DNA of 64,000 bases from a virus (taxonomy: Duplodnaviria > Heunggongvirae > Uroviricota > Caudoviricetes). The DNA is taken from the IMG/VR virus record IMGVR_UViG_638275541_000001; one strand, given 5' to 3'. A program made the translations under genes and the position numbers. The notes under the pieces were generated by a model, which did not search any database, was not told the origin of the DNA, and was given only the letters and a program-made list of their open reading frames with translations. Of the stretch, positions 24,708-24,851 are shown piece after piece. The stretch's first letter is position 1; every line of letters begins with the position of its first letter.

Positions 24708-24851
24708 AATTATCTTTGTAGATAAGTTATTAAGCTTACCTGTGAGTATGCGACCACAAAGGGTGAAAGGGTAAATTCTAGATTTAAACCCAAAAAGGCA
24801 CATCGCTACAGACCTTAAGCAAGTCTGGGTAGCTTATCTACAAAGATAATT
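24708..24851. repeat. perfect ~19 bp inverted repeat pair flanking ~106 nt
   Basis: AATTATCTTTGTAGATAAG (24708-24726) and its reverse complement at 24833-24851. Confidence 0.7.

Follow-up and report, generated by a model that had tools for sequence, protein, structure and literature searches.

A conserved long-stem RNA directly upstream of tRNA-Lys(UUU) in Felix O1-like phages, proposed as a candidate partner of the Ro60-like protein gp42

The window, that is, the whole stretch of 64,000 nucleotides analysed here, was identified as Salmonella phage Felix O1, phage FO1a (JF461087.1) being 100% identical over the query. Positions in the JF461087.1 record were converted to window positions by adding 78. 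An array of 25 tRNAs occupies the + strand from 23699 to 30180, and directly upstream of this array of tRNAs and Y-like RNAs lies gp42 (22118-23533, +), which encodes a Ro60-like protein. The element described below (24708-24851) has the same orientation as the tRNA array and is located 1.2 kb downstream of gp42 on the same strand. Its upstream neighbour is a Y-like module (24574-24707, +) reading AGACC-GUUUACAGCAA ... GGUCUGG, which contains tRNA-like arms and closes with GGTCTGG at 24700-24706. Downstream, a 4-nt linker (UAAU, 24852-24855, +) separates the element from its invariant neighbour tRNA-Lys(UUU) (24856-24931, +). The element accordingly spans the interval from the end of the module (~24707) to the tRNA at 24856, the gap that an earlier note on this DNA had described as filled.

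Several other features were observed in the array. HNH endonuclease genes are present among the tRNAs at 25021-25515, 26003-26395 and 27313-27726 (+). The presence of these insertions varies among relatives, and garuso carries ~380 extra nt in the region corresponding to 24400-25100. The Rfam tRNA model scored 31.7 bits at 25951-26029 (+), a position that partly overlaps the start of an HNH ORF and was not called by ARAGORN. Weak tmRNA-like matches were obtained at 25747-25819 (+; E 0.13-0.5). The long spacers of the array may contain further unannotated RNAs.

The sequence AATTATCTTTGTAGATAAG at 24708-24726 is the exact reverse complement of 24833-24851 (19 bp), as had been read earlier, and a repeat search returned the same pair of arms, with a possible extension to 22 nt if 95% complementarity is allowed. 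Among perfect inverted repeats contained within 400 nt, none in the 64-kb window is longer. As random controls, 200 first-order Markov sequences of matched composition (GC 39%) were used; their longest inverted repeat reached 16 bp once and was mostly 12-13 bp, in line with the earlier judgement that the repeat is unlikely by chance. The internal hairpin proposed in the earlier note was also recovered, with CAGAC at 24809-24813, the loop CTTAAGCAA at 24814-24822 and GTCTG at 24823-24827.

Read as RNA, the repeat becomes a terminal helix (P1) of 24 bp, 24708-24731 with 24828-24851 (+), consisting of 21 Watson-Crick and three G·U pairs; the first 19 nt of the 5′ strand and the last 19 nt of the 3′ strand are the perfect repeat arms. 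In the predicted + strand fold, P1 closes a junction of three or four hairpins, and the 157-nt region folds at -48.3 kcal/mol (z = -4.9 relative to dinucleotide shuffles). The P2 hairpin region (24736-24766, +), taken from the predicted fold and dependent on sequence type, holds the motif GAGUAUGC (24744-24751). Hairpin P3 (24769-24791, +) reads GGGU-AAAUU-CUA-GAUUU-AA-ACCC, and its core AUUCUAGAUU (24775-24784) is invariant in sequence types A and B, described below. Hairpin P4 (24809-24827, +), CAGAC / CUUAAGCAA / GUCUG, with its loop at 24814-24822, abuts the P1 3′ strand.

Two types of the element were distinguished among Felix O1-like phages. Type A is found at at least 95% identity in about 188 Felixounavirus records. 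Type B is found in about 60 further records, including bumzen, OPT-SAL01, fBSPA4 and the Mooglevirus phages Sf13 and Sf14, and the genus Felixounavirus includes phages of either type. Scans of IMG/VR and metagenomes anchored on the flanks yielded these two types only, in 30 distinct sequences. The types share one fold despite strong interior divergence: between Felix O1 and bumzen, identity was 94.8% in the upstream flank, 95% in the downstream flank and 50.5% in the interior. Similarly, window positions 24732-24827 and positions 526-624 of L003 diverge by ~50%, whereas identity is ~95% over the 290 nt upstream and in the downstream tRNA. This cassette-like divergence may result from exchange or from diversifying selection. 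In nearly all of about 235-246 records, the element occupies one place. An empty site, with the flanks joined without the element, was not encountered in the IMG/VR scan, and the plasmid sequences searched contained no match to the element. When IMG/VR was scanned with the inner motif, the hits L032 and L033 were attributed to chance, as were 6 of 23 metagenome hits.

Covariation was assessed on 29 distinct type A and type B sequences, using the cells of P1 and P4. Standard pairing was found in 98.6% of these cells, compared with 32-43% after sliding the partner by 1-3 columns. Five pairs (61 cells) had changed on both sides, four of them in P1: columns 4/148 (UA 15, CG 12, UG 2), 12/140 (CG 16, UA 13), 19/133 (CG 16, GC 13) and 24/128 (GC 16, UG 13). 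The fifth, columns 109/125 in P4 (GC 19, AU 10), is a GC-to-AU compensation within types A and B. None of 500 shuffles matched the observed covariation score. The closing pairs of P3 are type-specific (GGGU/ACCC in A, AGC/GCU in B), the extension of the type B P3 helix covaries at three pairs, and the more distant locus L144 retains a CUAG-centred hairpin. P2 and P3 are partly supported: covariation does not establish the P2 helix, and the MAFFT alignment between lineages is uncertain.

The strand was indicated by the wobble pairs. G·U pairs are frequent on the + strand, and their counterparts on the other strand or in DNA are A·C mismatches. In 30 out of 30 versions the + strand fold was more stable than the - strand fold, by 0.5-13.7 kcal/mol. 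Given the compensatory changes, the G·U pairs on the + strand and an overlapping reading frame that is not kept, the element is best described as a structured + strand RNA and not as a mobile element, a cruciform or a protein gene. That the repeat forms the closing helix of this conserved RNA is, in our view, very likely. Among the possibilities listed in the earlier note, this bears out the long-stem structured RNA, which is further borne out by the same build in nine lineages. The comparison with homologous phages suggested there turned out in its favour, the pairing of P1 and P4 being kept and five pairs being doubly changed.

Several other identities were considered and rejected. Pfam gave no match for the - strand ORF at 24573-24803, and type B phages carry it only in broken or shifted form. 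A - strand "hypothetical protein" is annotated in several GenBank records, for instance Alf5_044c (L060 981-1304; equivalent window positions ~24480-24803). ORFs of this kind span Y-like modules and run into the element; since they are not conserved in type B and have no family match, they are probably spurious calls over RNA genes. The terminator scan did not call the element as an intrinsic terminator; its stem is A+U-rich, spans 144 nt and is followed by UAAUGG and the tRNA. By eye, no hammerhead core was seen, type B reading CCGAUGA instead of CUGAUGA. A retron msr-msd would agree with the inverted repeats, but no reverse transcriptase was annotated or detected among the neighbouring ORFs. 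In Rfam searches, both at the gathering threshold and at E ≤ 10, no family matched inside 24708-24851. Nine related loci searched at the gathering threshold gave tRNAs only among the 150 matches listed of 156.

More distant lineages were reached through gp42 homologues at 51-63% identity on long contigs, each of which is followed by a tRNA array. In L144, L145, L146, L147, L149 and Yersinia phage P778, a 138-166 nt RNA lies directly upstream of tRNA-Lys(UUU); for the P778 version, no relatives were found in the phage collection. P1 comprises 20-25 pairs in these lineages, with small internal loops in some, and in every lineage 0-10 nt separate the element from tRNA-Lys. Compared over their first 20 nt, the P1 5′ strands are 10-60% identical between lineages, with pairing always kept. 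P4 is a 5-6 bp hairpin that directly abuts the P1 3′ strand. Over nine lineages, its stem positions 2-5 each show two to four pair types, the closing C-G pair is invariant and the 9-nt loop C-Y-U-W-A-G-C-A-A is nearly so. In the 5′ half, the motif G(A/G)GUA(U/G)GC (GRGUAKGC) aligns across the nine lineages, G37, G39 and U40 being invariant.

A G·U-tolerant scan for long stems was too noisy at 17 bp to serve as a detector. Instead, a descriptor combining the P4 loop pattern with 14 of 16 P1 pairs was applied to 0.96 Mb of related loci. It recovered the element in all six lineages (L144-L147, L149 and P778) and gave two doubtful hits elsewhere, plus one hit on the control strand. An element of the Felix O1 form was not detected by this descriptor in about 70 more distant phages carrying a Ro60-like gene. 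In its present form the element thus appears, as judged from these searches, to be limited to Felix O1-like phages. Common descent, rather than function, could account for its fixed place before tRNA-Lys.

The ends of P1 were compared with neighbouring signals. The L149 element takes up the entire 157-nt spacer between tRNA-Ala and tRNA-Lys, its first base following directly on the tRNA-Ala 3′ end. L148 has a promoter close to consensus, TTGACA-18-TATGAT, whose end is separated by 10 nt from a related long-stem RNA downstream. In L069, a TTGACA-17-TTTAAT promoter ends 9 nt ahead of a 22-bp stem; this stem surrounds an AGAAG-ACAUUCAGCAA...CUUCU module, and 3 nt lie between it and tRNA-Pro. The start of P1 thus repeatedly coincides with a natural RNA 5′ end, and its last base adjoins a predicted RNase P site. 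Paired termini that end at promoter, tRNA and RNase P positions are what a discrete RNA would show.

Hairpin P4 connects the element to its neighbours. Four modules of the form AGACC-N4-ACAGCAA ... GGUCUGG are located among the first tRNAs, at ~23866-23942, 24033-24100, 24487-24564 and 24574-24707 (+). P4 corresponds to such a module without the insert (AGACC-UUA-AGCAA-GUCU). AGACC...AGCAA...GGUCU is common to P4 and the four neighbouring modules, so the earlier description of the hairpin as a minimal copy of the Y-like termini was apt. Further occurrences of AGACC..AGCAA at 28306, 33457, 33676 and 34298 were dismissed as chance, as they lie inside ORFs and have no partner strand.

The ACAGCAA signature extends beyond this phage. 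It was found at most 150 nt downstream of a Ro60-like gene in 12 of 77 diverse loci, where 0.7 were expected (P about 7e-12), often as two modules 60 nt apart and even in phages without tRNAs. The four modules, together with this signature, look like an undescribed RNA family tied to the Ro60-like gene. Terminal stems with arms of 22-27 nt were found in L061 (5647-5838), L069 (7643-7753) and L062 (5510-5613), all on the + strand, enclosing a module with UUACCGCAA, UUCAGCAA or UUACAGCAA. Those of L061 and L069 lie just before the first tRNA, the L069 stem being preceded by three tandem TTGACA promoters. P778 contains a second long-stem RNA, before tRNA-Pro, which encloses GGACUG-AUUACCGCAA. In L069, L062 and P778, a long basal stem surrounds an ACAGCAA-type module just before a tRNA.

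The fourth module had been called YrlA-like. As in YrlA, the order of its parts is permuted: a T-arm (GGTTCGATTCC) comes first, then an acceptor-like hairpin that covaries (ACTCG/CGAGT, replaced by ACACG/CGTGT in Sf14), and then a D-arm (AGTTGGTGTAATGG). L062 carries two modules with a similar T-arm, acceptor-like hairpin and D-arm insert, one of which lies inside a 22-nt inverted repeat. The Rfam YrlA model, however, gave no match on 24574-24707 at E ≤ 10, so that the likeness holds for the order of the arms and not at the level of the family model.

Pfam assigned DUF2828 and DUF7788 to gp42, and PHROG 850 annotates it as "RNA-binding protein". Its AlphaFold model (pLDDT 89, pTM 0.88) shows a helical ring with a vWA domain. 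In a Foldseek search against the PDB, the 12 best matches were all Ro60/TROVE proteins, aligned over the full length with TM scores up to 0.65; they included Xenopus Ro60 (TM 0.65), the Ro60 of Thermus phage phiLo and Deinococcus Rsr, with isolated vWA domains ranking lower. The DxSxS motif of the vWA domain (D279, S281, S283) is invariant in the gp42 family. Neither phmmer nor a 38-sequence profile of gp42 matched Ro60 among the PDB sequences, so the relationship holds at the level of the fold only. The adjacent gp41 (21665-22036, +) belongs to the DUF5681 family (E = 2e-14). A member of this family also lies ahead of the Ro60-like gene in 6 of the 7 lineages examined at 51-63% identity, a recurrent order suggesting that its product may be a functional partner.

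The gp42 orthologue of the Felixounavirus phage Bas63, gp130, is Ro60-like and counters the ppl defence system (PMC11482910). In that study, Y RNAs were suspected among the neighbouring "tRNA genes", but none was pinpointed (PMC11482910). As gp130 alone, supplied from a plasmid or from T7, restores plaquing on a ppl strain (PMC11482910), the anti-ppl activity is independent of these RNAs. [quoted passage not shown] In a Thermus phage, Ro60 recruits the PNPase of the host and has two adjacent Y-like RNAs as ligands (PMC12135203).

Stem-ACAGCAA modules accompany the Ro60-like gene in many phages, and P4 has their design minus the insert; the element is therefore proposed as a partner of gp42: a stable, Y-RNA-like RNA excised from a tRNA precursor. 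We hold this reading tentatively, giving it a little less than an even chance. A stable non-coding RNA of about 144-150 nt would be made from the + strand as part of a transcript containing tRNAs and Y-like RNAs. Cleavage by RNase P at the 5′ end of tRNA-Lys(UUU) would leave its 3′ end 4 nt past P1, the UAAU linker forming the expected tail, and its 5′ end would be the first base of P1. P1 would clamp both termini in a rod of ~24 bp and present the multi-helix junction, which would display two conserved single-stranded motifs, G(A/G)GUA(U/G)GC and the P4 loop C-Y-U-W-A-G-C-A-A. Contact with gp42 might be made by P4 or by the inner end of P1, and the RNA might, by analogy with particles of Ro60, Y RNA and PNPase, tune what the protein binds or recruits. 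By this route it may contribute to counter-defence.

Three other explanations were weighed against this proposal. The helix could act as DNA, as a miniature inverted-repeat mobile element, as a cruciform or hairpin in recombination or replication, or as the target of a homing endonuclease; the 19-bp repeat is indeed perfect as DNA and several HNH endonuclease genes lie within the tRNA array. Yet each genome has a single copy, every relative examined has it in the same position, and no empty site, plasmid match, target-site duplication or direct repeat in the flanks (GGTCTGGT and TAATGG) was seen, which speaks against the mobile element named in the earlier note. The presence/absence comparison suggested there as a check revealed no relative without the element, and the scan for joined flanks came back empty. 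Moreover, G·U intermediates have kept the helix intact, and its - strand counterpart is systematically weaker. As G·U wobbles are not formed in DNA or on the other strand, pairing at the DNA level is disfavoured; with the pairing dependent on + strand wobbles and the site fixed, the recombination or endonuclease site likewise offered in the earlier note fares no better. The conserved sequence lies in the loops and not in the arms, which diverge while their pairing is kept. We regard action as DNA as very improbable. The RNA could also be a free-standing regulatory or decoy RNA acting independently of gp42, for example as a sponge or decoy for a host RNA-binding protein or defence sensor, with types A and B as products of an arms race. 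Flanks that are 95% identical around an interior that is about 50% identical but keeps its fold would fit the exchange or diversifying selection expected from such a race, the conserved loop motifs suggest a specific ligand, and an RNA not needed by gp130 against ppl may have a separate role. The likeness of P4 to modules linked to the Ro60-like gene favours a shared partner instead, and the anticodon-arm version of the decoy, considered below, failed. An RNA independent of gp42 is in our view improbable.

The remaining explanation, the principal alternative, takes P1 as an RNase III site or a structural insulator through which the long precursor of tRNAs and Y-like RNAs is cut just ahead of tRNA-Lys(UUU), aiding maturation of this tRNA, with the interior as a by-product. 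RNase III needs a stem of at least 20 bp and takes part in the processing of the tRNA cluster of phage T4. P1 has a suitable length, which is kept by compensatory changes (24 pairs in Felix O1, 20-25 in most lineages), and ends 0-10 nt before tRNA-Lys in nine lineages. A second long hairpin at 26880-26977 (+; 25-28 bp, z = -6.5) abuts a tRNA as well, overlapping the first bases of tRNA-Leu(UAG) at 26975. It contains at least four G·U pairs on the + strand, and its 3′ end, AAAGAUUUAAUGG, resembles the CAAAGAUAAUUUAAUGG of the element; the two 3′ ends might represent a shared processing signal. The 5′ end of the Felix O1 element directly abuts another RNA module, so that some endonuclease must separate the two if they are separate RNAs. 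On the other side, a plain processing stem does not need the conserved 9-nt P4 loop, the GRGUAKGC motif or the covarying inner helices. The promoter of L148 and the tRNA 3′ end of L149 lie right at the start of P1, leaving nothing upstream to cut off. Most other tRNAs of the array lack such stems, and in several lineages P1 is interrupted by internal loops. A mere processing stem is therefore rather unlikely, and it would be compatible with the Y-RNA-like RNA proposed above, since RNase III could also mature a functional RNA.

Compared with known Y RNAs (YrlA and YrlB, and Yrl1 and Yrl2 of phiLo), the element is likewise a non-coding RNA near a Ro60-type gene on the same strand, and a long stem between its two ends (P1, 24 bp, covarying) closes a large internal loop. 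There are also several RNAs per locus, one neighbour being tRNA-mimicking, and the size is of the same order. In contrast to these RNAs, the Felix O1 element lacks GGUCCGA and GNCGAAN0-1G or CGAA. At the CGAA-like position of type B, the Sf13 variant alone reads GCCGAAG, most copies having GCCGAUG. Its own conserved motifs are GRGUAKGC and CYUWAGCAA, and the motif recurring locally is (AC)AGCAA. The Rfam Y_RNA and YrlA models did not match 24708-24851 at E ≤ 10. Failing both the Ro-binding motif and the covariance models, the element is set apart from canonical Y RNAs. It also differs from YrlA in having no tRNA-like domain of T-arm and D-arm, which is found in the neighbouring module (24574-24707). 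Further differences are that gp42 (DUF2828/DUF7788) is a Ro60 relative at the fold level only, that the element lies inside a tRNA array and stops where a tRNA begins, and that its basal stem is longer and more perfect. Binding to gp42 is here a proposal.

The tRNA cluster of phage T4 contains two co-transcribed stable RNAs of unknown function, species 1 and species 2 (rnaC and rnaD). As generally described, these RNAs resemble the element in being structured, ~120-140 nt long, derived from a tRNA precursor and released by tRNA processing. To our knowledge, T4 does not encode a Ro60-like protein beside them. RNase III stems such as those of rRNAs and of phage T7 early RNAs resemble P1 in being long, near-perfect stems that flank an RNA in a polycistronic transcript. 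The RNA enclosed here differs in being small and in having conserved loops and a hairpin shared with its neighbours. A mimic of the tRNA-Lys anticodon arm was considered for P4 as well. The likeness is seen in Felix O1 (CAGAC-CUUAAGCAA-GUCUG compared with CAGA-CUUUUAA-UCUG), but the P4 stem departs from the tRNA anticodon stem in five other lineages, and the mimic was rejected.

The Ro60-like nature of the protein was already known from a preprint (PMC11482910). The RNA is unannotated and not in Rfam, and no paper describing it was found. It provides a concrete candidate for the RNA partner of the Ro60-like protein, with exact coordinates, a supported structure and motifs, and stem-ACAGCAA offers a simple sequence signature for the neighbouring RNAs across many phages. 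Several GenBank records have spurious protein calls in this region that the finding puts right, and Rfam lacks the well-supported RNA family that it describes. More speculatively, and in our estimate doubtfully, the element and the ACAGCAA modules may together form an undescribed class of phage RNAs that works with the highly divergent Ro60 proteins (DUF2828/DUF7788) of many large phages. If so, the long-stem RNA would be a specialised member of this class, its hypervariable interior (types A and B) shaped by an arms race with host defence, and would add, for the first time in enterobacterial phages, an RNA component to a counter-defence module built on Ro60.
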